64,000 bases of DNA from a virus: IMG/VR virus record IMGVR_UViG_3300045988_131485. One strand, written 5' to 3'. The notes beneath the pieces were generated by a model. The model was not told where the DNA came from. It ran no database searches and was given only the letters and a program-made list of their open reading frames with translations. Below are positions 15,493 to 63,063 of the stretch, piece by piece; position 1 is the first letter of the stretch; each line of letters starts with the position of its first letter. Made by a program: the position numbers and the translations under genes.

Positions 15493-15598
15493 GAGACGCA
15501 TTCTTAACGACACCACATTTGTTCGGCATATGCTTAGTTAAAGGCGATGATTTTTCTATTTCAAGTAGAATTGTTTTCAAAATTGCTGTTAGCGTCTC
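15493..15598 (-). ncRNA. free-standing helix-TAACAGCAAT element (106 nt) in tRNA precursor
   Basis: Minus sense is GAGACGC-TAACAGCAAT-(~80 nt)-AAT-GCGTCTC. The terminal 7-bp helix closes the domain. It carries the same junction sequences as the tRNA inserts at 53.4-54.9 kb. Confidence 0.55.
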
Positions 15599-15605
15599 AA
15601 AATAC

Positions 15606-15662
15606 GGAACACGGTTGTTCTTTTTCCCATAAAAAGTTTTTGAAAGTTGCTGTACGTGCCCC
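15606..15662 (-). ncRNA. free-standing helix-GTACAGCAAC element (57 nt) in tRNA precursor
   Basis: Minus sense is GGGGCAC-GTACAGCAAC-(~30 nt)-GTGTTCC. The helix includes two G-U pairs. It sits 5 nt after the upstream tRNA and 7 nt before the next element. Confidence 0.5.
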
Positions 15663-15667
15663 AAAAA

Positions 15668-15742
15668 TGGTAGAAGATGCCGGACTCGAACCGTTCTTCC
15701 TGCTCCCTGGGCAGGCGTGCTACCGTTATCACTACATCCTCT
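15668..15742 (-). tRNA. tRNA-like gene with atypical anticodon loop CCAGGGA (formal anticodon AGG, Pro)
   Basis: Good acceptor (AGAGGAT/ATCTTCT), T-loop TTCGAGT and encoded CCA. The anticodon stem CCTGC/GCAGG encloses CCAGGGA, with C at position 33 and A at 34. Confidence 0.55.
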
Positions 15743-46893: not shown

Positions 46894-46929
46894 GGTTAGC
46901 AATCCCCCTTTTCTTTCTGTAATAGAAGT
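46894..46929 (+). promoter_or_regulatory. class-A promoter-like motif (P20)
   Basis: GGTTAGCAATCCCCCTTTTCTTTCTGTAATAGAAGT, upstream of the methylase-helicase gene. Confidence 0.6.
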
Positions 46930-47002
46930 GAGGGGCGCGGTTCTGAGAGGACTCCGCATAAAAGCCTCTCTCCAGAAAAAGAAAGATAGAGCAGGTGAAA
47001 GA

Positions 47003-50000: not shown

Positions 50001-50053
50001 CAGACGAGGACGGAAACTTCAAAATCTCTTGGGGAGAGCAGAAGATCAGCTAA
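47003..50053 (+). CDS. N6-adenine DNA methyltransferase fused to SNF2/SF2 helicase
   Basis: Motif IV is VVGNPPFNL in the N-terminal third. Helicase motifs are QGGGKTLAG (I), VFDESDEMTN (II) and a C-terminal helicase-C-like region. The ATG at 47003 lies downstream of P20. Confidence 0.8.
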   Translation: MKYQYLNEPIPQEARHELNDKILYLVDQDLAEQSGISREDIYNAYTGDGGLHGLKRSDFANYHEYAEAKKEIENGQFFTPPALCQFIMEALSPAMDETVADLTSGIANFCNFMPLEANFYGCELDIKSHKVAHYLYPAANLEHRDIRFYQPNMRFDYVVGNPPFNLKWETEGGEIISQMYYCLKAAKLLKPLGIMAIVVPASFLADEYLDGAKISELAKDFSFLGQVSIQKDAFKSLGVDSYATKILFWQKKLDVADKGEPYALNSANWFNLTDMNNAAELLEIVRKEVVAPARERMRSNSARVKLVSMGGSDNAFEYEVRKLMFHIKSNPKLIDKYAKCQEYLYKFRHQEQPKDMKYEEWAKIRITEAKVLAYLRRVIKSQHKKPSQDVVRLVKQDGGLIYKGYSKKAQNSMSDGMKQLVPFYALASGQADDTGLEQYARLIRRKQRDYERETKPFTEMEQDAEIAQFLDDFTVYDNENEEWIHLNNTQKHDLNLVLQKHYHLLQWEQGGGKTLAGISTGRYRMERQGARNVWVVSTAISIKNNWDLVFKNYGMTNYRMIKCLADLDKVQDGEFVIITLNMLTKYRKQIKRHIKMRDQNVCLVFDESDEMTNPDSKRTKAVLDCFRRVRFKLEMTGTVTRNNISECAPQLELLYNNSYNMLSWAEDLYCYEKDDCEEYLNCSSNPYYGQPFPAYKAGYNLFAESHLPERITVFGVGKKTQDIYNADVLNKLLSYSVITRTFAEITGKEIRRLHQTPVSFAPAEREVYQKAMEEFFSMRQRYFALTGNSRKDSMMALIQQITLLLRISAAPNTVEEYDSPNTPVKIRKVCDMVGEWKDEIVVIGVRHKNVVEAYANEIRRRFPDRKLFVVTGSTTTLAGRRKLKNTLKESGNGILLCTQQCLPSSVNFEFVNKVIIPELHYNNARMSQFYMRFVRFTSTDWKDIYFVTYSGSIESNQMQMVLAKEKLNLFMKGQDVDLDEVYDRFGVDYDLMSLLMSREADEDGNFKISWGEQKIS

Positions 50054-50086: not shown

Positions 50087-50683
50087 TTAGGCCATGTACT
50101 TATTGCGGAATATACGAAGCATTCCGTTTTCCCATGCCGTTTTGACATGGCCTCTGCACCATTTTGTGTATCGGTCGAATTGAAGTGCTGCCGCTTGATT
50201 GGACAACCCGTATGTTGCCTTGATCTCAGAAGCGGAACGGATACCCATTTCACGCAGGATAGGAAGCGGAGCAAGTAAATTCCAGGCGAAGTAGTCTGCC
50301 TCGCTCTCGAACTGGTCATAGAAGCCCCTTTGCTCATTGTAGGCGATTTCGGCTCCCTCTATGACTTCCAGATGGCCTATATAGATATGGCCGATCTCAT
50401 GCGCCAAAGTCCACCGGATACGGCCAGCGTTCATTTCAGCATTGTAGAGAATAAGATAACGGTTTGTATCTGGATCGTAGTGCGTCGCTCCAGAATTGCT
50501 TTTGCATAGAACGGCAACGTCTTGGACAGTGCATCCAGTGACTTCGGCCATTTCCTGATACGACAAAATACGACAGCTTTTGGGGATGCACTGCAAGAGC
50601 AATTCAGGTTGGATAGGATAGGATACAGAATCCATGTCCTGGTAAAGCTCCAAGACCTTACGCTGTACAAAAACACTCCTCAC
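50087..50683 (-). CDS. ImmA/IrrE-family metallopeptidase
   Basis: HEIGHIYIGH (HExxH) in a 198-aa protein directly downstream of an XRE repressor gene. Confidence 0.85.
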   Translation of the reverse strand: MRSVFVQRKVLELYQDMDSVSYPIQPELLLQCIPKSCRILSYQEMAEVTGCTVQDVAVLCKSNSGATHYDPDTNRYLILYNAEMNAGRIRWTLAHEIGHIYIGHLEVIEGAEIAYNEQRGFYDQFESEADYFAWNLLAPLPILREMGIRSASEIKATYGLSNQAAALQFDRYTKWCRGHVKTAWENGMLRIFRNKYMA

Positions 50684-50734
50684 TATTTTGCCCTCCTTTC
50701 GCTACACGGAGACATCATAAGTGCATATTATAAT

Positions 50735-51121
50735 TTATTCCGTGTCCAATAAAACGGACTTCTTCTGCTGCGGATTATTCTCATCGGAAAAAGCGTAGTC
50801 AAATCCGATTTTCAGAATACCCATCATGCGGTTTCTATCCTGCTCAGTCATGCGCTCTCTGGCTCGCTGGAGGGTAATATAGTCGGGGTCGCCAAGCATG
50901 GTATCGGCAGTAGAGCGCACATTAGAAGCGCCTACCAGGTAGTCAATGGAGACATGGAAATACTCGGCGATCTTGGAGATTTTATCAATGGTTGGAGAGG
51001 TAGCGCTTTTCCACCTTCCAATAGAATATTGGCTCATACCAAGTTCGGATTCCAGTTTGTTGATTGTGATGTTATTTTCAGCACACAATTCTTTAATCCT
51101 TGTAAAAATGACAGAGTCCAT
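50735..51121 (-). CDS. XRE-family HTH repressor (CI-like)
   Basis: N-terminal IKELCAENNITINKLESELGMSQYSIGRWKSATSPTIDKISKIAEYFHVSIDYL is a typical HTH_3 domain. Confidence 0.9.
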   Translation of the reverse strand: MDSVIFTRIKELCAENNITINKLESELGMSQYSIGRWKSATSPTIDKISKIAEYFHVSIDYLVGASNVRSTADTMLGDPDYITLQRARERMTEQDRNRMMGILKIGFDYAFSDENNPQQKKSVLLDTE

Positions 51122-51151
51122 AACACAACCTCCAAACAGAGAATTTGAATG

Positions 51152-51169
51152 TCACGAATTTTTTCGTGA
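51152..51169. promoter_or_regulatory. operator O1 (TCACGAA-N4-TTCGTGA)
   Basis: Perfect palindrome just upstream of the -35 of the rightward promoter. Confidence 0.6.
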
Positions 51170-51176
51170 AAAGCAC

Positions 51177-51205
51177 TTGACAGCATGAAAGTAAGCTGGT
51201 ATAGT
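51177..51205 (+). promoter_or_regulatory. sigma-A promoter TTGACA-17-TATAGT (rightward, PR-like)
   Basis: -35 at 51177-51182 and -10 at 51200-51205, with TGG upstream (extended -10-like). Confidence 0.7.
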
Positions 51206-51215
51206 AAATACCAGA

Positions 51216-51231
51216 CACGAACTTATTCGTG
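51216..51231. promoter_or_regulatory. operator O2 (CACGAA-N4-TTCGTG)
   Basis: Second copy of the same palindrome, 10 nt downstream of the -10. Confidence 0.6.
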
Positions 51232-51299
51232 AAGTTGATTATATCATATCACACGTTTTCAGTTTAGTCAACCTAATACTTATTTGGAGGCGCGTAAAA

Positions 51300-51761
51300 A
51301 TGCACATCGTAAACAGTATGGCAGCAAACTTCGGCAAATATGATTTAGATGTCAGCGCCGTGGGGATGCGGAGTATCAGCGAGACGGACATTAAGCTCCC
51401 GTACACTGGTGTCCTCCCCGTACAGATGTCAGCGTCCTCTGGTGCCTATGTCTACCTCAACGTCCAGCTGGCTCAAGGCGCACGCCTGGTTCTGGTTGCG
51501 CATGGGAAGGGCAAGGATATCAAGCGTCCTCTCGAAGCGTCCAGTGAAGAGATTATCGCTTTGCTGGATGGGTTTTTCAAGCAAAACCAAGACGCTACCG
51601 GCCTTGCTCAGTATTGGCTCGGTGTGTGGCAAGCTCATTATACGGAATGGAGAAAGATCGTGACCGGCCCGGATCGGCTGTTGACAATCCTCTCTTCCCT
51701 GTCCGTAACGGATCGTGAGTTCCTGTGTAAGCATATGATGGACGTGCCGGCGACAGAGTGA
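51300..51761 (+). CDS. hypothetical protein (first rightward gene after switch)
   Basis: 153-aa ORF with a GGAGG RBS. Confidence 0.6.
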   Translation: MHIVNSMAANFGKYDLDVSAVGMRSISETDIKLPYTGVLPVQMSASSGAYVYLNVQLAQGARLVLVAHGKGKDIKRPLEASSEEIIALLDGFFKQNQDATGLAQYWLGVWQAHYTEWRKIVTGPDRLLTILSSLSVTDREFLCKHMMDVPATE

Positions 51762-51793
51762 GGTGAAGCGGATGTCCCCGAAAAATTTCGCAA

Positions 51794-51858
51794 ATAATTT
51801 TCTTGTTTGCTATTGACAATCTCACCTACGTATGGTAAGATAGCAACATAGAAAATGA
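51794..51858. promoter_or_regulatory. sigma-A promoter (TTGACA-17-TAAGAT) bracketed by inverted class-B motifs
   Basis: Minus-sense AATAGCAAACAAGAAAATTATT (51794-51814) and plus-sense GATAGCAACATAGAAAATGA (51839-51858) flank the -35 (51813-51818) and -10 (51836-51841). Confidence 0.55.
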
Positions 51859-51882
51859 TTTGAACGGATTGGAGAGGGGAAT

Positions 51883-52800
51883 ATGATCCGTAACAAATTC
51901 TTTGAAGACCCGGACGGCGGCTATGCTAAGGTAGGCGTCAAGAAAAACTTTGATATCGCCTGGAAAAAGGTTCTGGCCTATGAAGAGCAGACAGGCCAAT
52001 CGCTGGACAATGGCTTTACTAAGGAACAGTATGTGTCCATGTTCAACTCCATGAGGGTTCGTCACACCAGCATTTTCTTCAACTATAAAAGCCATGTGAT
52101 GAGCTATGTGCGATATCTGATTGCCAATGGCGTGCTGCCGGCAGAACAGGAAAGCATTTTGGCCTCCGTCACTGTGGACGACCTGAAAATCAACGAGACC
52201 AGCGGAGTGCAATACTACAAGAACTTGGGTATGCTCCACCAGGCAATCCAGGATTCCATCAAAGTGTCCGAGTGCTACGATGAAACCTTGTTTGACCTGC
52301 CCGCTGTAATTCTTTTCCTGGCTTGGTTTGGATTGACCGAAGAGCAGATCATCAATTTCCCCAAGGAAGATGTGCTTGATGACGGCGTGATGATAAACGG
52401 TGAGAAGACCGAGATGCCGTTTGAAATCTTGCAGATATTCAAGCGTCTGAGGGATGCAGAGGGATACTACCAGCAGGCCAGAGGCGTAATCTTCCGTGCC
52501 TATGTCTATTCAGATAACCTGATTCGGACGGAGCGGAACAGCAAGATCAACGTCTCTAAGATGCAGGGTCTGGTAAATCGTCTGAATACCCTGATGGACG
52601 GTGCCTACTCGCTACGGTACAACGTAATACACCAGTCCGGTATATTCTACCGTGCTCATCTGCTGGAATGCGAGAGTACCCAGTTCAATCTGGAAGACCC
52701 GGAGTTTGCGTCTAAGGTGTTTTGCGAGGATCTGTCCAGCAAGGTCAAGCACACAGCCCGGATCAGAGACTACAAGCTCTACAAGCAACTATTCTACTAA
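51883..52800 (+). CDS. hypothetical protein (weak resemblance to tyrosine-recombinase fold, catalytic residues not evident)
   Basis: 305 aa. The LAWFGLTEEQIINF segment resembles the box-I region of integrases, but I see no RHRY signature. Confidence 0.5.
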   Translation: MIRNKFFEDPDGGYAKVGVKKNFDIAWKKVLAYEEQTGQSLDNGFTKEQYVSMFNSMRVRHTSIFFNYKSHVMSYVRYLIANGVLPAEQESILASVTVDDLKINETSGVQYYKNLGMLHQAIQDSIKVSECYDETLFDLPAVILFLAWFGLTEEQIINFPKEDVLDDGVMINGEKTEMPFEILQIFKRLRDAEGYYQQARGVIFRAYVYSDNLIRTERNSKINVSKMQGLVNRLNTLMDGAYSLRYNVIHQSGIFYRAHLLECESTQFNLEDPEFASKVFCEDLSSKVKHTARIRDYKLYKQLFY

Positions 52801-52866: not shown

Positions 52867-53172
52867 ATGAGATTCCGTAAAAACGCCGTCCCCGTACCTG
52901 TTACCCGCGATCTCCTGCAGGAAAAGCAGACTGAGATTGCTCGTCTGGCTCGTCAGGCAAGCGAGGCGGTAGACATCGTTACCAGAACAATGAATGAGCT
53001 GGAGGGTATCAACCAGCAGATCGACAACGACCTGGCTGAGATCGACACCTATTCCAAGGAACTGGCCGCGACACGCGCCGCCATGTCCCAGCAGCGGAAG
53101 AACAATACCGCTATCATCGCCAACTTCGCAAAGCTCCTGGATACCAGTCCCGCAGAGAGCGTGAGTGAGTAA
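52867..53172 (+). CDS. hypothetical coiled-coil protein
   Basis: ORF-track 52822..53172 starts inside P21. The ATG at 52867 follows GAGGAG. Confidence 0.55.
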   Translation: MRFRKNAVPVPVTRDLLQEKQTEIARLARQASEAVDIVTRTMNELEGINQQIDNDLAEIDTYSKELAATRAAMSQQRKNNTAIIANFAKLLDTSPAESVSE

Positions 53173-53198
53173 TTCATTCGGTTGACCAACCGGAGTAT

Positions 53199-53255
53199 GA
53201 GGCGCTAACAGCAATTTTACAACTATCAAACTTTTACTTTGACTCAATGCGTCTC
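53199..53255 (+). ncRNA. free-standing helix-TAACAGCAAT element (57 nt)
   Basis: GAGGCGC-TAACAGCAAT-(~30 nt)-CAAT-GCGTCTC. The 7-bp closing helix has one G-U pair. It lies 12 nt upstream of tRNA-Ser. Confidence 0.5.
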
Positions 53256-53267
53256 GTTGAAAAGCGT

Positions 53268-53358
53268 GGAGGGGTAATCCTAACTGGTAAGGAAGCAGTT
53301 TGCTAAACTGTTAGTAATCCGAAAGGGTGTGTGGGTTCGAGTCCCATCCCCTCCGCCA
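53268..53358 (+). tRNA. tRNA-Ser (GCT), class II
   Basis: Acceptor GGAGGGG/CCCCTCC, discriminator G, loop TTGCTAA, long variable arm, encoded CCA. Confidence 0.85.
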
Positions 53359-53441
53359 AGCCGCAATAGCGGCGAACTCTTTATCACCTCCTCTCTCTGA
53401 CGGCGGGAAAGACCGCTGACGGCCCGGAAAGACGGGCGGCA

Positions 53442-53553
53442 TGGGAGCGTCCGGTGGCAGCTCATAACGTGTAATCGACGGTGGACACGCACAGCAATTT
53501 TACCTTGAAAGTCTGCAAAACTTTTGCTTACGGTTCGACTCCGTAGCTCCTAA
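53442..53553 (+). tRNA. tRNA-like gene (Cys-GCA-type anticodon arm) carrying the conserved helix insert
   Basis: Acceptor TGGGAGC/GCTCCTA, T-arm TACGG-TTCGACT-CCGTA, intact anticodon arm AAAGT-CTGCAAA-ACTTT. Between the D region and the anticodon arm lies CATAA-CGTGT-(12 nt)-ACACG-CACAGCAAT. No CCA is encoded. Confidence 0.55.
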
Positions 53554-53758
53554 AAAACCGTCATCAATCTATAAGAAGGGTCGTGTGTGTCATGAAGAAG
53601 TTCCTGGCTATCGTTCTGTGATTCAAAGTGATCAGCGGCAGCGGCGTCCAGCGCCGGGTATGTGGAGAAAGCCATGAATAGAATACGAGACAAGCCCTAA
53701 GTCATCTTCGGATGACAGTACAGTAATGAATGCGACGATGAATGAACAGTAACGAATT

Positions 53759-53813
53759 GGGGCACTAACAGCAACCATCAACATTACCTGCTTTGGAAAT
53801 GAGAATGTGTCCC
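53759..53813 (+). ncRNA. free-standing helix-TAACAGCAAC element (55 nt)
   Basis: GGGGCAC-TAACAGCAAC-(~28 nt)-AAT-GTGTCCC. The 7-bp closing helix has one G-U pair. Confidence 0.5.
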
Positions 53814-53824
53814 GTACACGTGGC

Positions 53825-53836
53825 AAAGAGCCATTT
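53825..53836. repeat. left 12-bp inverted repeat AAAGAGCCATTT
   Basis: Exact reverse complement of 54973-54984. It encodes KWLF on the minus strand. Confidence 0.8.
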
Positions 53837-54043
53837 CATTGCCATCAACTTGTCCTCGAAGAACGCCTTAGTGAAGCGCTGAGAGATGTCGTGCTCGCTG
53901 GCGCTACGGAGAGATGCCACAGCGAAATTGAGATCCAGGAGAGCCTTGCCGGTAGTGCGGAAGCCGACTGCACCGTTCTCGGTGACAGAGACATTGCACT
54001 CGTTATTCAGCGTGCTCTTGATCCCATCCATAAAGTTACTCAT
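53825..54043 (-). pseudogene. N-terminal 73-codon fragment of DUF2828/vWA gene (detached by inversion)
   Basis: MSNFMDGIKSTLNNECNVSVTENGAVGFRTTGKALLDLNF...DKLMAMKWLF, with an AGGAGG RBS. After KWLF the frame runs into unrelated sequence. Confidence 0.65.
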
Positions 54044-54073
54044 TATCTCTTACCTCCTATATTGAGATACCCA

Positions 54074-54109
54074 GGACACACTTTTTATTTACTGTTGCTG
54101 TTTATGCCC
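54074..54109 (-). ncRNA. short helix-TAAACAGCAAC element (36 nt, weak)
   Basis: Minus sense is GGGCA-TAAACAGCAAC-(15 nt)-TGTCC. The helix is only 5 bp. Confidence 0.3.
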
Positions 54110-54116
54110 AGAGAAA

Positions 54117-54240
54117 TGGAGCGGCAGGTAGGACTCGAACCTACGAATGGCAGCTTGGCTTCCTTGAACATTGCTGTTAGCGGAACTCCTCGTTTCGCAT
54201 TGTAATAGGGCTGCTGTGTTGACCACTTCACCACTGCCGC
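54117..54240 (-). tRNA. tRNA-like gene (Gly-like acceptor/discriminator) carrying the conserved helix insert
   Basis: Acceptor GCGGCAG/CTGCCGC, discriminator U, CCA encoded, T-arm GTAGG-TTCGAGT-CCTAC. The stem GCAGC/GCTGC encloses 57 nt including AAT-GCGAAAC-GAGGA-GTTCCGC-TAACAGCAAT. Confidence 0.55.
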
Positions 54241-54379
54241 ATGAAGCTCGTCTTTCCGAGCCGTCACAACCCAGTTCAAGATATTTGGGTTGAATATCTG
54301 GCGTTTACCGTCAGCATAGACATAAACGATCCCAAAGCCCTATGCCTATCCGCCCATTAGCAGGGACGGCTTCTGCTTG

Positions 54380-54496
54380 TGCCAGGGGTGGGACTCGAAC
54401 CCACGACCACGGGATTAACAGTCCATAGAAAGTTGCTGTAAGCGTCTCAACAAGACACGCATTAGTACGCGCTCTGTCCGACTGAGCTACCCTGGC
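54380..54496 (-). tRNA. tRNA-like gene (Asn-GTT-type anticodon loop) carrying the conserved helix insert
   Basis: Acceptor GCCAGGG/CCCTGGC, canonical D-arm GCTCAGTCGGACAGAGC, and GGA-CTGTTAA-TCCCG. The 43-nt insert TACTAAT-GCGTGTC-TTGTT-GAGACGC-TTACAGCAAC-TTTCTAT splits the 5' strand of the anticodon stem (CG / GGA). No CCA is encoded. Confidence 0.6.
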
Positions 54497-54764
54497 GTAC
54501 GCCCCGCCGTAGCGGGGCTATTTTGCATGACCCCTCTTATGTGCATTTTCTACTCAAACCCAGCCGTATAATACGGCAAACAGTTATACCGATCGGTTCG
54601 GCTTCCCGCACTATTATGGCTGGCGGCGAACCAGGTTTTCACCGTACTGTAAATTATCGGGGTCGAGATAATGACATACGGCAAGGAACAACAGACAAGC
54701 AAACCCATATTCAACATTAGTCTGTCGCACCTCCTTTTTTTTGTAACTACACTAAGTAGCTTGT

Positions 54765-54888
54765 TGCAAGGAGTGGGACTCGAACCCACGACAATCAGTT
54801 CCCTTTTTACATAGCTGTTAGCGCAACTGGGGGAGGGGAACGTTACGCATTTTTTATACTGGTGCTCTACCAACTGAGCTACCCTTGC
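54765..54888 (-). tRNA. tRNA-like gene (identity unclear) carrying the conserved helix insert
   Basis: Acceptor GCAAGGG/TCCTTGC, canonical D-arm and T-arm. The anticodon region is replaced by ...AAAAAAT-GCGTAAC-(14 nt)-GTTGCGC-TAACAGCTAT.... No CCA is encoded. Confidence 0.55.
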
Positions 54889-54972
54889 ATGGTGGGAGGC
54901 TTTTTCATTGCTGTCTGCGTTGCTCTGTACGCATACGAATACGGAAACCTCCCAGAAACCGCTATATCCGTA

Positions 54973-54984
54973 AAATGGCTCTTT
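54973..54984. repeat. right 12-bp inverted repeat AAATGGCTCTTT
   Basis: Exact reverse complement of 53825-53836. It encodes KWLF on the plus strand. Confidence 0.8.
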
Positions 54985-56322
54985 TATGCTCGTGATGTCC
55001 GTGGTGGCCTGGGCGAGCGCCGGCTGTTCCGCGCCTGTATGGTGCCTCTGGCGAAGGAGTTTTCCGAGTACGTCGCCCCTGTGGTGGCACTGGTACCTGA
55101 GTACGGTCGCTGGGACGATCTGTGGTGCCTGCTGGATACGCCCGTGTGTGACTGTGTGACCGGGCTGGTCAAAGAGCAGCTTTATGACGACGCCCAAAAT
55201 GCGGCAGAGGGCAAACCCATTTCTCTTTTGGCAAAGTGGATGCCCCGCTGCAAGACTTCTTCCAAGCAAACTCGGCATTATGCCCAGATTTTGCGGAAGG
55301 CTGTCGGCATGACTGAGCGCCAGTATCAGCACACCCTCGCCAATCTCTCCCGTTATCTGCTCGTTGTGGAGCAGCAGATGACCGCCAAGCAGTGGGAGGA
55401 AATCGACTATCAGCGTGTCCCCTCTCGTGCCAACCTGCAGTACAACAGCGCTTTCCTCCGTCACGACGAGGATCGCCGACGTGCATTCCTGGGTGCTGTG
55501 GAGAAAGGCGAGGCCAAGATCAACGCTTCTGTTCTCTTCCCGCATGACATCGTACATCGGTACGGTTATGCCGGCAGCACCGACGCCAATCTGGAAGTGC
55601 TGTGGAAGAACCTCCCCGATACGGTGCAGGGCTGTGGTAACACCATCGTGGTGGCCGACGGTTCTGGTAGTATGAGAGTGAGAGTCGGCAATACTGATGT
55701 GTCTGCGCTGGAAGTAGCAAACTCTCTGGCGATCTACTTCGCCGAGCGTTCTTCTGGTCAGTTCAAGGATCAGTACATCACCTTCTCTGAACATCCTCAG
55801 CTGGTCGATTTGAGCAGAGGCAAGAACCTTCGTGAGAAACTGCGGATCGCTGCTACCCATAACGAGGTTGCCAACACCAACATCGAGGCCGTATTCGACC
55901 TGATCCTCACTACGGCGATCAACAAGCACATGGATCAGAGCGATCTTCCCGCGAACATCCTTATCATCTCTGATATGGAGTTCGATGGTTGTGCAACCAC
56001 CGGCGCAATCTCCCATGATAGGTGGGGATATAGCAGACGGGTCGCACCTACTCCCCGCCTGTTTGAGGTAATCGCCCAGCGGTATGCGGAAGCCGGATAT
56101 CAGATTCCTCGTCTGGTATTCTGGAATGTCAACTCCCGTAGCGGCACCATTCCTGTTAAGGAGAACGATTTGGGTGTTGCGTTGGTCAGCGGTTTCTCTC
56201 CCAATATCGCCAAGATGGTAATGAGCGGCCAGACTGATCCTTATGACTGCCTGTTGGAGGCCATCAACGCAGAGCGGTATCAGCAGGTGGACGATGCCCT
56301 TCGTCCTATTATCTCCGCATAA
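54973..56322 (+). pseudogene. C-terminal 449-codon part of DUF2828/vWA (Ro60-like architecture) gene
   Basis: KWLFYARDVRGGLGERRLF... with a vWA MIDAS motif VVADGSGSM. The ORF-track N-terminus (MLYQLSYP...) is a read-through of the antisense tRNA-like gene, and there is no start or RBS at the true junction. Confidence 0.65.
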
Positions 56323-56347
56323 GCAACAAAGTAAACCATTAAGGAGG
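56319..56347 (+). promoter_or_regulatory. class-B-like motif ATAAGCAACAAAGTAAACCATTAAGGAGG
   Basis: Overlaps the stop codon of the vWA gene. Confidence 0.4.
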
Positions 56348-56396
56348 CTCAGAACGATAGAGTAGCAAGTAGCTGTCTACGCTCTGAGCCTCTTTT
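56343..56396 (+). terminator. terminator-like long hairpin
   Basis: GGCTCAGA...TCTGAGCC followed by TCTTTT. Confidence 0.5.
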
Positions 56397-56414
56397 ATCA
56401 AAGGAGTGAAATAC

Positions 56415-57572
56415 GTGGTATATCTCGACAATGCTGCCAACGCTCCGGTCTTCCCGGAGGTTCTGGAAGCTATGCTCCCCTGGCTCCGGCCCGATCATGT
56501 AGGCAATCCCGGAAGCCTCCATACCCAAGGGGTCAATGCTCGTGAAGCTGTTGAAAATGCCCGCCGCCAGGTAGCTAAAATGATTGGTGCCGATCCCTCA
56601 GAGGTGTTCTTTACCTCTGGTGGCACAGAGTCGAACAATGCGTGGTTGCAAAACTTTGGCGGCGATTTGATTTTAACAACTGCTCTGGAACACGATTCGG
56701 TTCTGGAACCTATGTCTGCACACTGTCATCGCCATTATATCAAAGTCCACAAAGATGGTAGCGTAGACCTAAATGATCTGGAGCGTTTTTTATCGGATGC
56801 CCATACTGCTGAGTCTAACTATTTACCTCGTGATGGACGTTCGACAGCTGTTTCTATCATGTGGGTAAATAATGAGCTGGGCACTGTCAATCCTATGAAA
56901 GAAATCGGAACCCTTTGCAAAAGGTATCATGCCGTATTCCATGCCGATGCTGTGCAGGCGGCAGGCCATGTGAATATGAACGTGAAGGACTGCGGAATTG
57001 ACTTCTGCTCTATGTCCGGTCATAAGTTCGGTGCTCCTCTGGGTGTTGGTGTGCTTTATATCAGCAATTCTATCCGTAAATCCCCGTGGATTATCGGTGG
57101 AGGCCAGGAAAACGGAATGCGTGGTGGTACCGAGAACGTTCCGGGAATTGTAGGAATCGGCAAAGCAGCAGAAATCGTTACTGAACGCCTCCAGAACTGG
57201 AAGCTACGGTGGGGATTGCTCAGAGATACATTCTTAACTGATTTGGGGCTAAGAATGCCTGGGGAGTTCTATATCAACGGTGATAGCGAGAACTATTCTT
57301 CTAACATCATCAGCCTGACCATCCCTGGCGTCAACAGCGAATCTCTGCTTCTTCTGTTGGATCAGTTGGATATCTACCTTTCTGCTGGTTCTGCGTGCAG
57401 CGCTGCCAGTGCTAAATCCTCTCACGTTTTGCGTGGTATTGGAATGTCTGATGAAGATGCGGCCTGTACTGTGCGTATTTCAATGGGGTTCAATACCACT
57501 GTTAATGAGATGCACGAAGCGGCAGAGGCTATCGTGACTGCCTCTCATAAGCTGAAATCCATGTATTCTTGA
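56415..57572 (+). CDS. cysteine desulfurase (class V aminotransferase, NifS/IscS-like)
   Basis: YLDNAA...TSGGTESNN...HADAVQA...SGHKFGAPLGVGVLY (PLP-Lys)...LSAGSACS (active-site Cys). The GTG at 56415 has better spacing from AAGGAG than the GTG at 56406. Confidence 0.85.
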   Translation: MVYLDNAANAPVFPEVLEAMLPWLRPDHVGNPGSLHTQGVNAREAVENARRQVAKMIGADPSEVFFTSGGTESNNAWLQNFGGDLILTTALEHDSVLEPMSAHCHRHYIKVHKDGSVDLNDLERFLSDAHTAESNYLPRDGRSTAVSIMWVNNELGTVNPMKEIGTLCKRYHAVFHADAVQAAGHVNMNVKDCGIDFCSMSGHKFGAPLGVGVLYISNSIRKSPWIIGGGQENGMRGGTENVPGIVGIGKAAEIVTERLQNWKLRWGLLRDTFLTDLGLRMPGEFYINGDSENYSSNIISLTIPGVNSESLLLLLDQLDIYLSAGSACSAASAKSSHVLRGIGMSDEDAACTVRISMGFNTTVNEMHEAAEAIVTASHKLKSMYS

Positions 57573-57598
57573 TTAGTGGCAAAGTAAATTAACAAGGA
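57573..57598 (+). promoter_or_regulatory. class-B-like leader TTAGTGGCAAAGTAAATTAACAAGGAG
   Basis: Fused to the SD of the RNA ligase gene. Confidence 0.4.
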
Positions 57599-57607
57599 GT
57601 GAATATA

Positions 57608-59007
57608 ATGTATTGTGCCTATGTTACCAGGATTCACAATCTGAGGAAGCATACCAATGCCGACCGGCTGCTCTGTGGCGAATGTTTCGGTAATACGGTG
57701 ATTGTGGATCTCGGCACCGACCCTGATCAGCTGGGCGTGTACTTCCCTACCGATGGCAAACTCGGTTTGGAGTTCGCACAGAAGAATGACTTGCTGCGGC
57801 GCAAGGATGAGAACGGCGCTCCGGCTGGCGGATACCTTGACCCGGAGAAGCGGAATATTAAGGCTCTCAAGCTCCGGGGCGAGAAGAGCGACGGTCTGTT
57901 CCTCCCTCTCTCCTGTTTAGCTTCTTTTACCGATATCAAGAAGCTCCAAGAGGGCGATACGATCTCTGTGTTGAACGGTATCACTATCTGCGAGAAGTAC
58001 GTACCCGCCGTCAAACGCGCCTCCGGTAGTGGGGGGGTGGCAATCATGTTCGTAAGCGTTCTGATCCTATCTCCCCGCTCTTCCAAGAACACGCTGACAC
58101 GGAGCAGTTGGCCTACAACCTCTCCGCATTCCATGCTGGGGATCTGGTAGAAGTTACCCTGAAAATGCACGGAACTTCTCAGCGTACCGGCTATCTGCCT
58201 GTGTTGCAGGGCTATAAATATCGGAACCGTATGGAAAAGCGGCTCTATGAGAGTCGTAAGACCCCGAATGTGATTCGTTCCAAAATCAAGCGGGCACCCA
58301 TCTATGATTGGGGCTATGTTACCGGAACCCGCCGCGTGGTTCTGGATACCTTCGATGAGGGAGGCTTCTACGGTAATAACGCTTTCCGCGAAAAACACGC
58401 CAACGTCTTTGAAGGAAAGCTCCACAAGGGAGAGACGGTCTACTACGAGGTTGTTGGCTTCACTGACGATGGTACGCCCATCATGAATCCCGGAAACAAC
58501 TCTAAGCTGAACGACAAGGAGTTTACTAAACAGTACGGTAAAACCACCACATTCAGCTATGGCTGCGCTCCCGATGGTAAGGAACATCCCAAGTCCGATC
58601 TTTTCGTTTACCGCATGACAATGACCAACGAAGACGGTGATGTGGTGGAGTATCCGCCCGACTTTATGCGCTATCGTTGCGAACAGATGGGCGTCAAATG
58701 CGTCCAAGTGTTCTGCCGCACTATCATCCCGGACTTCTACCAGCTCCCCGACGATGTTGGATCTCCGCAGGCAGTGAACGCCGGCGAGTATGTGAAGAAG
58801 CTGGCTGAGAATTTCTACGACGGCCCCGATCCTGTCGGCCATACCCATGTTCGGGAAGGTGTCGTGTGCCGTATTGTCAACCGTCCCAAGTTCGCCGCCT
58901 ATAAGCATAAAAACTTTGCGTTCAAGGCGCTGGAGGGACTGATCAAAGACACCGCCGCCGCGCCTGATATGGAAGAAGCTCAGGATGTTGGAGAACAGAA
59001 TGGATGA
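57608..59007 (+). CDS. ATP-dependent RNA ligase (DraRnl/Rnl5-like), reading frame broken at a G7 run
   Basis: The N-terminal OB-like domain (57608-58036) is in one frame. The nucleotidyltransferase part, with motif I EVTLKMHGTS, is in the -1 frame (open from 58036). GGGGGGG at 58031-58037 is the junction. Confidence 0.65.
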
Positions 59008-59116
59008 AAAAGTCGTTTTTGGCTTTATCAACAACTTCAAAGCTGGGCAGATATGGAGCAGCTTGACTCAAGCCTATACCGGAGAATGATCCGGGATTGT
59101 ATCAAAAAGGAGCGAT

Positions 59117-59950
59117 ATGACGATGACGACTTTGATCCAGAATGAGCAGAAGCGCCAGAAGATTATGGCGCGGATGCGGGAACATCTGGTGCCCGTCTTG
59201 GAGCATTGCAGGGGAGGCTGGGTCGGCCTCTTCCTGCAAGGTTCTCAGAATTATAACCTTGACTATGAGGGTAGCGATATTGACACCAAGGCAATCATGT
59301 TGCCCAGCTTTTCCGATTTCGTGTTGAACGCCAAACCTCTCAGCACTACCCACATTATGGAGAATAACGAACACGTGGATTTCAAAGACATCCGCCTCAT
59401 GTTTGACTGTATCAAGAAGCAGAATGTCAACTTTGTTGAGATCCTGTTCACCCCTTACTCCATCATCAACCCGGAGTATGCCGATCTTTTCCAGCCTGTT
59501 CTGGACGCTCGTGAAGAGATTGCCCGATACAACAACTACGCCGGGATGAACTGCATTATGGGTATGGCTCTGGAAAAGCAAAAGGCAATGGAGCACCCCT
59601 ACCCTGCCACAATGGACAAGATTGAGGCATTTGGGTATGACCCGAAGCAGCTTCACCATGCTCTGCGGCTGCGGGAGTTTATGACCCGTTACGAAGCCGG
59701 CGAGCCTTACGCTGACTGTCTTATCAGTAACCAGTGTGATTATCTCAAAGAGGTGAAGCGCGGTTGCTACTCTTTGAAAGAAGCACGGGCACTGATGAGC
59801 ACTGCAATTCAATCTATGACCGAAGACAAAAAGCGCTATATGGATACGGTGTCTGTTTCGATCAACCAGCACGCCAATGAGGTACTGCAAAAGGCTACCG
59901 TTGAAATTCTCAAACGATCCTTCTTAAAGGAAATCCAAGGAGGAGAATGA
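59117..59950 (+). CDS. Pol-beta-superfamily nucleotidyltransferase
   Basis: LQGSQNYNLDYEGSDIDTK fits the G[SG]-x9-13-DxD signature of minimal nucleotidyltransferases. Confidence 0.65.
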   Translation: MTMTTLIQNEQKRQKIMARMREHLVPVLEHCRGGWVGLFLQGSQNYNLDYEGSDIDTKAIMLPSFSDFVLNAKPLSTTHIMENNEHVDFKDIRLMFDCIKKQNVNFVEILFTPYSIINPEYADLFQPVLDAREEIARYNNYAGMNCIMGMALEKQKAMEHPYPATMDKIEAFGYDPKQLHHALRLREFMTRYEAGEPYADCLISNQCDYLKEVKRGCYSLKEARALMSTAIQSMTEDKKRYMDTVSVSINQHANEVLQKATVEILKRSFLKEIQGGE

Positions 59951-59951
59951 G

Positions 59952-60866
59952 ATGCCGATGTTTTACATGATGGTTGGCCTCCCTGGTAGCGGGAAGTCAT
60001 TCACTGCCGAAAGCATCCCTAACGCCGTCGTCCACTCCAGCGATGCGATCCGTGCCGAAGTTCTTGGTGACGAGAACGACCAAACCCAACAGGACTTGGT
60101 TTTCCAAACCCTTCACAAAAGGGTTTTGCAGGATCTGGTGGATGGCAAGGATGTGGTGTACGACGCAACCAATATCAACTACAAGCGCCGTATCGGATTC
60201 CTTGATCGTATCCGAGCGCTCCACAAACATGATTTGCGTACAGTATGTCTTTTCATGGCGACGCCCTATGAGGTGTGTTTGGAGCGCAACAATAATCGGG
60301 AACGTTCTGTCCCGGAGTCTGTAATCCAAAAGATGTACTTCAAATTCGATGTTCCTATGATGGCAGAGGGTTGGGATGAAATCAGGATCGTGGGTGACGA
60401 AGATCGCCACGACCAGATTGATACCCTTATGCTTCGTCTCTCCAAGCTGGAACATGATAACCCGCACCATGAGTACACGGTTGGTCAGCACTCTATGACG
60501 GCATGGCAGTATCTGATCAGCCACTATAAAGGTGCCGATGCTGCTCTGCTCCGCGCCACGCTGTTGCACGATATTGGCAAAGAAAAGACTAAAGTATTTC
60601 ATAACATCAAAGGCAACCCCACTGAGATCGCCCACTTCTATCATCATGAGCGTGTAGGAGCTTATGACAGCTTCTGCTATACCGGCGATCTCAGTCCTAA
60701 CCAGCGCCTTACTGTGGCGCTGCTGATCCGCTGGCATATGTGGCCGTATGCGGTTGAAAAGTCAGATAATCCGAGTAAGACGGTTAGCAAAATCAAACGT
60801 CTGCTTGGTAATGATATCTGGAACCAGGTCATGGTGTTGAACGCCTGTGACCGCAATGCACACTGA
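59952..60866 (+). CDS. P-loop kinase fused to HD-domain phosphohydrolase (polynucleotide kinase/phosphatase-like)
   Basis: N-terminal MVGLPGSGKSF Walker A plus DATN. C-terminal HEYTVGQH...LLHDIGK...HHERVGAY are HD-domain motifs. Confidence 0.7.
   Translation: MPMFYMMVGLPGSGKSFTAESIPNAVVHSSDAIRAEVLGDENDQTQQDLVFQTLHKRVLQDLVDGKDVVYDATNINYKRRIGFLDRIRALHKHDLRTVCLFMATPYEVCLERNNNRERSVPESVIQKMYFKFDVPMMAEGWDEIRIVGDEDRHDQIDTLMLRLSKLEHDNPHHEYTVGQHSMTAWQYLISHYKGADAALLRATLLHDIGKEKTKVFHNIKGNPTEIAHFYHHERVGAYDSFCYTGDLSPNQRLTVALLIRWHMWPYAVEKSDNPSKTVSKIKRLLGNDIWNQVMVLNACDRNAH
60782..60817 (+). promoter_or_regulatory. degenerate class-A motif (P22) inside CDS 3' end
   Basis: GGTTAGCAAAATCAAACGTCTGCTTGGTAATGATAT, about 65 nt upstream of the ATG at 60883. 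Confidence 0.35.
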
Positions 60867-61408: not shown

Positions 61409-62383
61409 ATGACGACAATCATTGGAACCGGGGAGGTGGGTGCTTTGCATAGCAGAGAAGAGTTGGAAGAGATGCAGCACCTGCCTCTCCAACGCAAAAT
61501 CCAGATCACTACTGCTCGTATCATCGAGTGGTATCAGCACTACGACGGGAAGGTCTATGTGGCATTTAGCGGTGGTAAGGATTCTACCGTACTACTCGAT
61601 ATTGTGCGGCGGATCTACCCCGATGTGCCTGCTGTTTTCTCTGATACCGGGCTTGAGTTCCCGGAAGTCAGAGAATTTGTTAAGAGCTGTGAAAACGTTA
61701 CGATTGTCCGGCCTGAGATGAACTTCCGTAAAGTTATTGAGGTGTACGGATATCCCGTTGTCTCGAAGCGTGTAGCTGACACTGTGGAATATGGGCATAA
61801 GCCTGGTTCTTTCAGATGGAAAGAGCTACATGGAGAGATCATGCGGAGCAACGGAACGCCGTCAGAGTTCAACTGTGAAAAATGGTGCTATCTATTGGAT
61901 GCCCCATTCAAGGTTTCTTCTCGGTGCTGTACAATCATGAAGAAGCAGCCTATGAAGAAATACTCCAAGGAAACTGGTCGAGTGCCTATTATTGCAACTA
62001 TGGCAAACGAGAGCAGATCTCGGCGTGCCACATGGTTACGTATGGGATGCAATGCTTTTTCCGGTAAGAAGCCCAGCTCCCAACCCATGTCTTTTTGGAC
62101 TGAGGAAGATGTGCTGGAATACCTCTATACCTATCAAGTCCCCTACGCTTCGGTTTATGGCGAGATCGTCAGAACTGATAGGGGGGGGTGGACGACGACA
62201 GGCGAAAAGCGTACTGGCTGTGTCTTTTGTGCCTTTGGCGCTCACCTTGAAAAAGCTCCAAACCGTTTCCAGCGTCTAAAAATCACGCACCCAAAGCTCT
62301 GGGATTACTGCATGAGGCCGTGGGAAGAACATGGTTTGGGTATGCGGCAAGTCCTTGAGTATATTGGTATTCCGGTAGAATAA
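61409..62383 (+). CDS. PP-loop ATPase of the PAPS-reductase family (Cys-rich, possible Fe-S)
   Basis: VAFSGGKDSTVLLD is the PP-loop. There are Cys clusters CEKWC..RCC and GCVFCAFG. The start may instead be the TTG at 61445 after GGGGAGGTGG. A 35-codon hydrophobic ORF (61345-61452) overlaps the 5' region. Confidence 0.75.
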   Translation: MTTIIGTGEVGALHSREELEEMQHLPLQRKIQITTARIIEWYQHYDGKVYVAFSGGKDSTVLLDIVRRIYPDVPAVFSDTGLEFPEVREFVKSCENVTIVRPEMNFRKVIEVYGYPVVSKRVADTVEYGHKPGSFRWKELHGEIMRSNGTPSEFNCEKWCYLLDAPFKVSSRCCTIMKKQPMKKYSKETGRVPIIATMANESRSRRATWLRMGCNAFSGKKPSSQPMSFWTEEDVLEYLYTYQVPYASVYGEIVRTDRGGWTTTGEKRTGCVFCAFGAHLEKAPNRFQRLKITHPKLWDYCMRPWEEHGLGMRQVLEYIGIPVE

Positions 62384-62406: not shown

Positions 62407-63063
62407 ATGATTGATGTAATGGAAAACATCAAAAAACTCTCCGCCGCTTTGGATGCGGAAACTGCAAGCCTACATCCTTCCGGCAAGCTGCTTCTGCTTG
62501 GTTCTCAGGATAGCGTGTTCCTGAAAGCCATCAAGCGTAAGGCAGACCAGCTTGGTATCAACTGTGATCATACGTCCAACCCTCTCCCTCCCTATCGAGG
62601 GATTGTTGTGGATAGTGAAACAGTGTCGTTCAACTCTATTCTCGATCCTGATGTGGATATTGACCACTCTTATTCTCCCGGAATGTCGGCGGTCTCTCAA
62701 GCAGTCATGGATTTGCTAATTGAGTCTGGATTGGTATGGGAGAAGGATATTACCATCGTAGGCCGAGGGCACGCCGTTAAAGAACTGGCGAAGTATTTGG
62801 ACTTTAACAACGCGACGGTTACAGTAGCACATTCCAAAACAAAAAGCCTGTTGCAAGCTACGCAGAACCGGGATGTGGTGATTTACGCAACTCCGATTAT
62901 CACGCAGGATATTTCCTACAATACCCGCGATCTGGTTATTGATCTGGGAAACAGCGTCCCGCATCCTGACCGGCTTAATTGCCCCTATGTAAATCGGATC
63001 GGACAGCTTACCGTAAGTATATTGCTGAACCGTTTTGCAAAGAAGGAGTCGGTATGGATCTGA
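62407..63063 (+). CDS. FolD-like (methylene-THF dehydrogenase/cyclohydrolase) NAD(P)-binding-domain protein
   Basis: ITIVGRGHAVKELAKYLDFNNATVTVAHSKTKSLLQATQNRDVVIYATP parallels the FolD C-terminal Rossmann segment (vvGrs..vG.P...lL...naTVt.cHs.T). Confidence 0.55.
   Translation: MIDVMENIKKLSAALDAETASLHPSGKLLLLGSQDSVFLKAIKRKADQLGINCDHTSNPLPPYRGIVVDSETVSFNSILDPDVDIDHSYSPGMSAVSQAVMDLLIESGLVWEKDITIVGRGHAVKELAKYLDFNNATVTVAHSKTKSLLQATQNRDVVIYATPIITQDISYNTRDLVIDLGNSVPHPDRLNCPYVNRIGQLTVSILLNRFAKKESVWI

Follow-up and report, generated by a model that had tools for sequence, protein, structure and literature searches.

The 64,000-nucleotide (nt) stretch of DNA analysed here, one strand of IMG/VR record IMGVR_UViG_3300045988_131485 (hereafter the window), is part of a large temperate phage or prophage whose hosts are gut Clostridia. 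Between positions 53825 and 60866, the piece under study, it holds the two parts of a gene for a DUF2828 protein with a von Willebrand factor A (vWA) domain, three tRNAs that carry an insert in the anticodon region, a cysteine desulfurase gene, and genes for a putative RNA ligase, a nucleotidyltransferase and a kinase fused to an HD phosphohydrolase. A preliminary description had read this locus as a phage-borne Ro/Y-RNA-like or RNA-repair module. Here we examine its genes, RNAs and predicted structures together with those of contigs that are related to the window or were scanned alongside it, which are designated by L-numbers (L001, L009, L022 and so on).

A split gene rejoins to encode a 518-residue protein

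The first part of the DUF2828-vWA gene, referred to below as the Ro60-like gene, lies on the minus strand (53765-54043) and the rest on the plus strand (54973-56322). The minus-strand open reading frame (ORF) begins MSNF...TENGA...FEDKLMAMKWLF, and its first 73 codons are genuine; past the codons for KWLF (53825) it runs into unrelated sequence, giving an ORF of 92 amino acids (aa). The plus-strand ORF, which covers residues 70-518, carries on with KWLFYARDVRGGLGERR and holds the RDVRGGLGER motif and the vWA domain, including the DGSGS of the MIDAS motif (metal-ion-dependent adhesion site) at 55657-55671. Joining the first 73 codons (minus strand, 54043 to 53825) to the remainder (plus strand, 54985-56322) at the shared KWLF codons yields a protein of 518 aa. 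Since the gene is a single 518-aa ORF in related contigs, at 100% identity in L001 (8001-9557) and at 93-99% identity in more than 10 other IMG/VR contigs, this reconstruction, proposed in the preliminary description at about 518 aa, is correct. The motifs TENGA, RDVRGGLGER and DGSGS, and the DUF2828 membership ascribed to the protein, were likewise upheld by reading of the sequence and by Pfam.

The split results from an inversion. BLAST comparison with 11 related contigs placed window 53825-54984 in the opposite orientation to all 11, with an overlap of 12 base pairs (bp) at each junction. The limits of the segment are the two copies of a 12-bp inverted repeat: AAAGAGCCATTT occupies 53825-53836, and its complement, inside the KWLF codons, occupies 54973-54984. 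By this inversion the Ro60-like gene of the window is physically disrupted. The inverted 1.16-kb segment contains three tRNAs together with the first 73 codons of the gene. Both orientations occur in nature, the uninverted one being commoner. The inverted state is real, and an assembly artefact was rejected: the diagnostic 92-aa product of this state was found in at least 8 independent samples (with related cluster members on up to 168 contigs), and a repeat of only 12 bp is not long enough to confuse assembly. A conserved, ancient programmed switch was rejected as well, since the 12-bp repeat is confined to a clade of at least 81% protein identity. A separate allele, P0002 (785 aa, on contigs up to 193 kb), has the last 32 codons of the Ro60-like gene swapped for the frame of a tyrosine integrase, a sequence arrangement which indicates that the gene's 3' end has taken up an integrated element.

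The modelled protein resembles the Ro60/TROVE ring

Pfam assigned the 518-aa protein to DUF2828 (9e-34) and DUF7788 (1.5e-42), and it matched the PHROG family phrog_850, annotated as 'RNA-binding protein', at 3.7e-139. DUF2828/DUF7788 is a large and uncharacterised family (6,856 clusters at 50% identity, E up to 0.001) known from phages and giant viruses and, by the account of papers that name it, also from plants. Across 96 diverse homologues the MIDAS residues (DxSxS...T...D, with DGSGS at residues 298-302) D298, S300, S302, T371 and D403 are invariant; in the helical domain, several residues with basic or aromatic side chains are invariant too.

A search of the PDB with the single sequence returned nothing useful, and a profile of the 96 homologues ranked Ro60 chains at the top yet only marginally (E 0.03-0.9), with alignment over the MIDAS region only. 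We therefore turned to structure. An AlphaFold2 model was generated from the homologue alignment (predicted local distance difference test 94.2; predicted template-modelling score 0.93) and compared with the PDB using Foldseek. The seven best matches were all Ro60/TROVE proteins aligned over their full length (536-592 aligned columns; E 4e-7 to 1e-5; template-modelling (TM) scores 0.49-0.55). Among them are 9kop (Ro60 of phage phiLo, the best match), 1yvr, 2i91, 1yvp, 9nep and 9nf8; human Ro60 is represented, as is Xenopus Ro60 in complex with a Y RNA or a misfolded RNA; below them ranked isolated vWA domains only. Among the predicted viral structures of BFVD the fold is common in phages and giant viruses, and is linked to a 'TROVE domain-containing protein' of a crAss-like phage. 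The earlier comparison with Ro60/Rsr holds for the helical domain, the vWA domain and the fold, Ro60/TROVE rings being the only full-length PDB matches, and does not extend to sequence membership in TROVE. As modelled, the protein is a divergent structural homologue of the Ro60/TROVE ring that stands outside Pfam TROVE, and the relationship is only a distant one, because the TM scores lie near 0.5 with a root-mean-square deviation of 8-10 Å.

A helix-junction module is grafted into tRNAs

The three tRNAs of the inverted segment all lie on the minus strand. T1 (54120-54240) is a Gly-type tRNA with anticodon GCC, U73 and an encoded CCA, in which a module (54170-54201) sits within the anticodon loop. 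T2 (54380-54496) has a canonical CUGUUAA anticodon loop and carries the module (54432-54463) between nt 28 and 29, within the 5' strand of its anticodon stem, while T3 (54765-54888), a Pro-type tRNA with anticodon AGG and G37, carries it 5' of the anticodon (54811-54851). On the plus strand a fourth RNA, T0 (53437-53565; module at 53466-53498), is tRNA-like: it has both an acceptor stem and a T arm, and its anticodon stem-loop (CUGCAAA) is canonical. These RNAs had been described as 'tRNA-like' with an insert; the inserts are present, yet the label is too vague. T1-T3 score 46-50 bits against the Rfam tRNA model, each with a 54-56-nt insert in the anticodon region, and are genuine tRNA bodies (Gly-, Asn- and Pro-type) with a grafted module. 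T1 keeps its Gly identity elements along with the encoded CCA.

The module is 30-40 nt long and consists of AAUGYG, a 7-bp covarying hairpin, CRC and the junction UAACAGCAAY, in that order. Four exact copies of TAACAGCAA are present in the window, as against 0.49 expected, and more copies with one mismatch lie within the same 1.8 kb. Its position is always 5' of the anticodon and yet varies, from stem position 28/29 (T2) to the loop itself (T1, T3) to a site ahead of a complete anticodon stem-loop (T0); one relative has the module inserted in the D loop (L022 7659-7778).

Covariation supports the structure. An alignment of ten T1 orthologues contains the acceptor, D, anticodon and T helices and the inner 7-bp hairpin, with compensatory changes in every helix. 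Among 56 distinct hairpins the second pair is always C-G or U-A, and at depths 4-7 pairing is seen at 162 of 221 positions, compared with 103 ± 7 in shuffles. In T0, the loop of the module hairpin (GACGGU, 53476-53481) is complementary to ACCGUC in the 3' trailer (53557-53562), and relatives show five or six compensatory variants of this pairing, which is indicative of a pseudoknot. A 2-bp pairing between the ACAGC core and the anticodon, proposed by RNAalifold, was rejected, as the variation across tRNA types does not track the anticodon.

When the insert was deleted in silico, at junctions of our own choosing that for T1 were not forced, ARAGORN in default mode accepted the products as Asn(GUU), Pro(AGG), Gly(GCC), Tyr(GUA) and amber suppressor tRNAs. 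A scan of 53000-55100 against Rfam, at the gathering score and at E up to 1, gave no match to a Y RNA, YrlA, ribozyme, intron or riboswitch. As far as could be checked, a helix and junction grafted 5' of the anticodon in otherwise normal tRNAs is a seemingly new RNA element, absent from Rfam and not found in the literature searched. Some tRNAs of relatives have 8-nt anticodon loops (CUUUUUAA) or are given four-base anticodons by ARAGORN (L015 7463-7581, L022 7292-7409; L015 7086-7162; L039 7286-7364), and the module-bearing tRNA of L069 is an amber suppressor (CUA).

The same element occurs in permuted, free-standing form

The same helix and junction also occur outside tRNAs, circularly permuted, so that the AAU-GYG strand lies 40-90 nt 3' of the CRC-UAACAGCAAY strand, the helix being formed by the two ends. 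Such units sit 7-12 nt ahead of normal tRNAs, at 53759-53813, and in the 5' untranslated region (UTR) of the Ro60-like gene. The UTR unit is short (GGGCA-UAAACAGCAAC...UGUCC, 54074-54109, minus strand) and has analogues in L039 and L040. Two units lie on the plus strand: GGGGCAC-UAACAGCAAC-(28 nt)-AAU-GUGUCCC at 53759-53813, and GAGGCGC-UAACAGCAAU-...-AAU-GCGUCUC at 53199-53255, which encloses a hairpin resembling an anticodon stem-loop and stands 12 nt before tRNA-Ser(GCU) (53268-53358). A hairpin-type unit, AUGCGU-loop-ACGC-AGACAGCAAUG, lies just upstream of T3 (54906-54935, minus strand) and is flanked by GGGAGG/CCUCCC pairing. Far from this locus, in the tRNA array of the window (12-16.7 kb; 22 tRNA genes and a transfer-messenger RNA (tmRNA)), two permuted units, GGGGCAC-GUACAGCAAC...GUGUUCC and GAGACGC-UAACAGCAAU...AAU-GCGUCUC, stand just upstream of tRNA-Asn (15500-15665, minus strand). 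Between these two units and the tmRNA is a weak tRNA match (15672-15741, minus strand; 35 bits) that ARAGORN does not call. Permuted units were also found in L039 and L040, whose proteins are 44% and 35% identical to that of the window, and junction variants among the units include UAACAGCAA, UUACAGCAA and CAUCAGCAA.

The module and DUF2828 genes co-occur beyond the window phage

In the uninverted state, the RNAs lie directly upstream of the DUF2828 gene on the same strand. To determine how widely this arrangement holds, IMG/VR was scanned with the motif only, which returned about 120 stretches; roughly two thirds of these were chance matches within genes, and about 39 were in tRNAs. Essentially all tRNA-borne modules with sufficient downstream flank had a DUF2828 gene just downstream on the same strand, at protein identities of 35-41% (L113, L143, L150), 59-62% (L047, L069, L154) and 66-100%. 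When 185,579 bacterial and archaeal genomes were scanned with a more stringent pattern, 19 loci emerged, all of them labelled as Clostridia-type or unclassified gut bacteria except one from a fecal metagenome-assembled genome of Paludibacteraceae. Here the DUF2828 gene was downstream in 15 of the 15 testable loci, the other 4 of the 19 ending at a stretch or contig edge. Even loci at 35% identity that have no tRNA-borne modules carry a helix-ACAGCAA unit upstream of the DUF2828 gene. The co-occurrence of protein family and RNA module, put forward in the preliminary description as a check, thus extends far beyond the window phage, in IMG/VR and bacterial genomes alike.

Genes for putative RNA-repair enzymes lie downstream

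The ligase, nucleotidyltransferase and kinase-HD genes had been placed immediately downstream of the Ro60-like gene. All three are present, and they are preceded by a gene for a NifS/IscS/DndA-type cysteine desulfurase (class-V aminotransferase; 56406-57572, plus strand), which separates the Ro60-like gene from the ligase. The roles given to the three enzymes below are predictions by homology only.

The ligase gene (57599-59007, plus strand) would encode an Rnl5 (DraRnl/NgrRnl)-type RNA ligase with an N-terminal OB fold and adenylyltransferase motifs I-V: I KMHGTS (58162-58179), Ia GTRRV, III YYEVVG, IIIa FVYRM, IV REGVVCRI and V AYKHKN. The family profile matched the Naegleria Rnl5 ligase NgrRnl at 1e-16 through the OB fold (residues 6-132 to 7-124) and T4 Rnl2 at 5e-6. 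Pfam RNA_ligase matched residues 184-428 at 5.7e-5, TIGR02306 (RNA_lig_DRB0094, Deinococcus) matched at 9e-11, which is below the cut-off of that model, and the PHA02142 OB domain gave a weak match in the window ligase and a strong one in L154. With motifs III-V in place and the NgrRnl match, the DraRnl-type assignment made earlier is borne out. In the window the gene is split into two ORFs, 57599-58150 and 58108-59007, by a run of seven G residues (58031-58037) that is eight long in L001 (467 aa) and L009 (469 aa). The frameshifted state is also common, since the truncated 299-aa product is found on 48 contigs; the G7/G8 difference could reflect slipped-strand variation or a recurrent sequencing error. 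Given this frameshift in the ligase and the inversion in the Ro60-like gene, the window's own copy of the system is off or decaying, that is, switched off or inactivated.

Directly 3' of the ligase, in all loci of the clade, is a gene for a Pol-beta-type nucleotidyltransferase (59117-59950, plus strand) with the signature GS...DID (GS...DxD) at 59240-59284. Earlier called a minimal nucleotidyltransferase, it does carry that signature, and is probably better described as RlaP-like: the window protein has no Pfam match, while 9 of 33 relatives (55-85% identity) match RlaP (PF10127), with a best E of 9.7e-6. RlaP adds one or two nucleotides to damaged RNA 3' ends (PMC12776372). The next gene (59952-60866, plus strand) would encode a polynucleotide-kinase-type P-loop kinase (GLPGSGKS) fused to an HD phosphohydrolase (LLHDIGK), as had been proposed; its closest solved structure is the kinase of Clostridium thermocellum Pnkp (CthPnkp; 3e-13), it matches TIGR04075 (2.8e-17) and Pfam AAA_33 and HD, and its HD domain is closest to that of CCA-adding enzymes. 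The order Ro60-like gene, desulfurase, ligase, transferase, kinase-HD is kept throughout the clade of 66-100% identity (L001-L022, L033), with a few loci missing one gene, and a ligase and a kinase are again found near the DUF2828 gene in L154 and L028.

Beyond the kinase-HD gene is one for a PAPS-reductase/PP-loop ATPase family protein (61409-62383, plus strand), a possible sulfur-transfer partner of the desulfurase whose membership in the system is uncertain. It gave weak BrxP-, SspD-, DndC- and TtcA-like matches. Searches of defence-system libraries returned only DndA/SspA-like matches for the desulfurase and BrxP/SspD-like matches for the PP-loop protein. These two genes flank the repair genes and could serve thiolation of tRNA anticodon loops or DNA modification. 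At 62407-63063, 3' of the PP-loop gene, is a short FolD-like protein (tetrahydrofolate dehydrogenase/cyclohydrolase NAD(P)-binding domain).

The phage has near-identical relatives in cultured bacteria

A blastn search of phage genomes deposited in GenBank gave matches limited to tRNA-Ser and no close relative of the window. IMG/VR holds dozens of relatives, a 185-kb contig from a human-associated metagenome has an arrangement equal to that of the window, and near-identical prophage copies are present in the cultured Oscillospiraceae Dysosmobacter segnis BX15 and Hominicoprocola fusiformis CLA-AA-H269, with a DUF2828 protein 96% identical to the window's. Their presence in cultured gut bacteria makes experiments feasible.

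A lysogeny-control module (50087-52800) is made up of an ImmA/IrrE-type metalloprotease (50087-50683, minus strand), a helix-turn-helix repressor-like protein (50735-51121, minus strand) and a 305-aa recombinase-fold protein (51883-52800). The predicted structure of the last has a tyrosine-recombinase fold, with the SPbeta/phi3T master repressors YopR/MrpR and SroF as best structural matches. It was considered as the invertase of the 53825-54984 segment and rejected on account of these repressor matches and of its neighbours in the lysogeny module, the helix-turn-helix protein and the ImmA-type protease. It was also rejected as a Cas6-like nuclease, a weak single-sequence match (0.03) being lost with the family profile and the fold being that of a YopR-type repressor. 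Next to this module, a 1041-aa protein (46928-50053) is, judged by the N6_Mtase and ResIII domains of the matching gene in a related contig, a fused methyltransferase-helicase.

A possible Ro60/Y-RNA-like particle coupled to RNA repair

Ro60/TROVE proteins bind the helix of a Y RNA on their outer surface and take single-stranded RNA ends into the central hole. We put the probability at about one half that the locus specifies a phage counterpart of the Ro60/Y-RNA particle, linked to heal-and-seal RNA repair, in which tRNAs bearing a grafted binding module serve as the RNAs. The preliminary description is to this extent partly supported, by the fold, the co-occurrence and the ligase motifs. In bacteria and phages, Y RNAs with tRNA-like domains adjoin Ro60 genes, YrlA combining a Ro60-binding stem with a tRNA-like domain (PMC4201824), and the Ro60 of Thermus phage phiLo binds Y-like RNAs encoded upstream of its gene (PMC12135203). 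From this likeness to Y-RNA design and this precedent for a phage Ro60, we infer that the helix and UAACAGCAAY junction may be the docking site of the Ro60-like protein.

Under such a scheme, the protein would dock on the 7-bp helix, flanked by AAU on one strand and by UAACAGCAAY on the other. The free-standing form would be Y-RNA-like, its two ends making the helix, followed by the junction and then by a tRNA-like or hairpin domain; the tRNA-borne form would be the same design with the break shifted from helix to acceptor stem, so that the helix is capped and the acceptor end open. Healing would fall to the kinase-HD protein, which would turn 5'-OH ends into 5'-phosphates and 2',3'-cyclic or 3'-phosphate ends into 3'-OH, and to the RlaP-like transferase, which would replace nucleotides lost from 3' ends; the Rnl5-type ligase would seal the nick. 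The purpose may be the upkeep, by protection or repair, of tRNA anticodon arms in the face of host anticodon nucleases, with the particle acting as platform, decoy or substrate holder. The structural tie to Ro60 and the genomic tie to a specific RNA element give DUF2828/DUF7788 a testable function.

Several observations weigh against this interpretation. The protein has no match to Pfam TROVE (PF05731), Pfam giving DUF2828 and DUF7788 only, and its structural similarity to Ro60 is distant, as described above. The module is unlike the bulged helix known to bind Ro60, with no Y RNA or YrlA match in Rfam. Linkage alone cannot tell partnership from shared operon history, and the converse linkage is not strict, since the DUF2828 loci of L035 and L036 have no clear unit. 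The repair enzymes are displaced or absent from the flank in the L023-type clade (about 66% identical) and in more distant relatives. Finally, the RNAs retain anticodon loops, Gly identity elements and an encoded CCA, which suggests that they are meant to work as tRNAs and fits an intron better than a permanent scaffold.

Introns are the main rival to a particle. Modules would then be protein-dependent tRNA introns, released by cuts on both sides that a nuclease or the RNA itself would make; the kinase-HD protein would heal the ends and the Rnl5-type ligase join them, while the Ro60-like protein holds or chaperones the precursor. Removal of the insert in silico does yield tRNAs that ARAGORN accepts, T1 keeps its tRNA identity elements, the insertion site varies between stem position 28/29, the 5' side of the loop and (in L022) the D loop, and in two genes (L069, L154) the anticodon stem's 5' strand is present twice, once on each side of the insert. 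Excision of the T2 type would leave a perfect 5-bp anticodon stem, which shows compensatory changes between relatives, and the break would be a nick in a duplex. Such a nick is the substrate preferred by Rnl5 ligases (DraRnl, NgrRnl). However, the neighbouring genes offer no endonuclease candidate, no bulge-helix-bulge pairing is seen by eye at the T2 junctions, and Rfam gives no ribozyme or intron match at E up to 1. For the T1 type, a canonical 7-nt loop with U33 needs an ad hoc junction, the natural 5' flank Y-N-U giving 8 nt, and a search of IMG/VR for a module-free T2 allele produced only an unrelated tRNA-Lys. Moreover, the helix and junction also occur permuted outside tRNAs, where a role as intron is impossible. 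Introns would thus explain the preserved tRNA features and the duplex-nick geometry of T2, but not the free-standing units, and we regard them as rather unlikely. Quite doubtful is the fully specified version, in which intron-bearing pre-tRNAs are matured by a phage cut-heal-seal pathway of kinase-HD, RlaP-like and Rnl5-type enzymes and the Ro60-like ring recognises the helix and junction of the intron. If true, it would give bacteria or their viruses their first case of protein-dependent tRNA splicing, and the large DUF2828 family, which reaches giant viruses and eukaryotes, its first function.

The free-standing units have a ready explanation if all helix-UAACAGCAAY units act in cis, as signals for the processing or regulation of a long tRNA/DUF2828 transcript (such as nuclease entry sites, leaders or an autoregulatory 5' UTR), and are linked to the gene through a shared operon: they lie 7-12 nt ahead of normal tRNAs, a 5' UTR unit stands just ahead of the DUF2828 ribosome-binding site in the window, L039 and L040, and every unit is oriented like the genes after it. 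What this leaves unexplained is the presence of the unit within anticodon arms of tRNAs whose cloverleaf is kept, and its lasting linkage to one protein family, down to 35% identity, amid changing neighbours; in addition, a 5' UTR site for autoregulation would itself imply protein binding. We consider signals of this kind unlikely, placing them behind introns in general and ahead of the full splicing pathway. The variable insertion positions, the many copies per genome and the target-site-like duplications in L069 and L154 also recall a small mobile DNA element that targets tRNA genes, either like a miniature inverted-repeat transposable element or with hairpin ends of the IS200/IS605 type, and TnpB (IS605 OrfB) genes are present in these same two loci with a duplicated 5' strand of the anticodon stem (L069 1678-2787, L154 1984-3087); co-occurrence with DUF2828 would then reflect common descent of the phage group. 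Yet orthologous copies are kept across 35-100% protein identity with compensatory changes in the helix, which argues for selection on RNA or single-strand structure and not for recent spread, and the covariation of the T0 hairpin loop with a distant trailer is typical of functional RNA. There are no terminal inverted repeats, and the IMG/VR search for a module-free T2 found no empty sites. A mobile element is therefore very improbable, far more so than the other alternatives.

Comparison with known systems

As in archaeal and eukaryotic protein-spliced tRNA introns and bacterial group I tRNA introns, the inserts described here are short, lie in or near the anticodon arm, also at non-canonical positions, and restore a cloverleaf when removed; as with yeast Trl1, healing and sealing enzymes are encoded near the RNAs. 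Protein-spliced introns differ in having a bulge-helix-bulge, which inspection of the T2 junctions did not show, and a splicing endonuclease, which is missing among the neighbours. Group I introns differ in size, the insert being far too small, and a further difference is that the conserved core of the insert is also found outside tRNAs.

On the enzyme side, phage repair cassettes such as T4 Pnkp/Rnl1 and the jumbo-phage sets of ligase, RlaP and kinase/phosphatase, with an occasional ROT/TROVE protein, would share with this locus the heal-and-seal logic against anticodon nucleases and a ligase-associated Pol-beta transferase (PMC7824862, PMC12776372). The parts are non-orthologous to those of T4-type cassettes, with an Rnl5-type ligase in place of Rnl1/Rnl2 and an HD phosphoesterase in place of the HAD phosphatase. 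The kinase domain is closest to that of Clostridium thermocellum Pnkp, which recalls bacterial Pnkp/Hen1, although the Hen1 methyltransferase, the metallophosphoesterase domain and a ligase domain in the same chain are all lacking. Phage RNA-repair systems that combine ROT/TROVE proteins, ligases, RlaP and kinases have been described, so that the general type, including a tRNA-like RNA, is already known (PMC7824862); what the window adds is dedicated module-bearing tRNAs, not described for such cassettes in the literature searched.

Thermus phage phiLo Ro60 with Yrl1/Yrl2 (PDB 9KOP, 9L5Y) is likewise phage-encoded with its RNA partners just upstream (PMC12135203). Unlike the window protein, it is a canonical TROVE protein; its RNAs are stem-bulge-stem and Y-like, contain a CGAA motif and lack a tRNA body, its gene is not described as having repair enzymes next to it, and its proposed role is to hijack host PNPase. 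Bacterial Ro60 (Rsr) and YrlA, including the Salmonella rsr-yrlBA-rtcBA operon, differ in other respects: the window protein is DUF2828/DUF7788 and not Pfam TROVE, its RNAs are complete tRNAs with open acceptor ends, retained anticodons and a permuted topology, the helix and UAACAGCAAY junction bear no sequence relation to the helix that Ro60 binds, and in place of RtcB/RtcA there is an ATP-dependent Rnl5-type ligase with kinase-HD and RlaP-like partners. What the two have in common is a ring-type protein of helical repeats with a vWA/MIDAS domain as its cap (predicted, for the window), small RNAs adjacent to its gene that join a known or presumed protein-binding helix to a tRNA-like domain, and genomic coupling to an RNA ligase (PMC4201824, PMC7790460). 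If the module is indeed the docking site of the protein, Y-RNA-like particles would have been invented from tRNAs at least twice.

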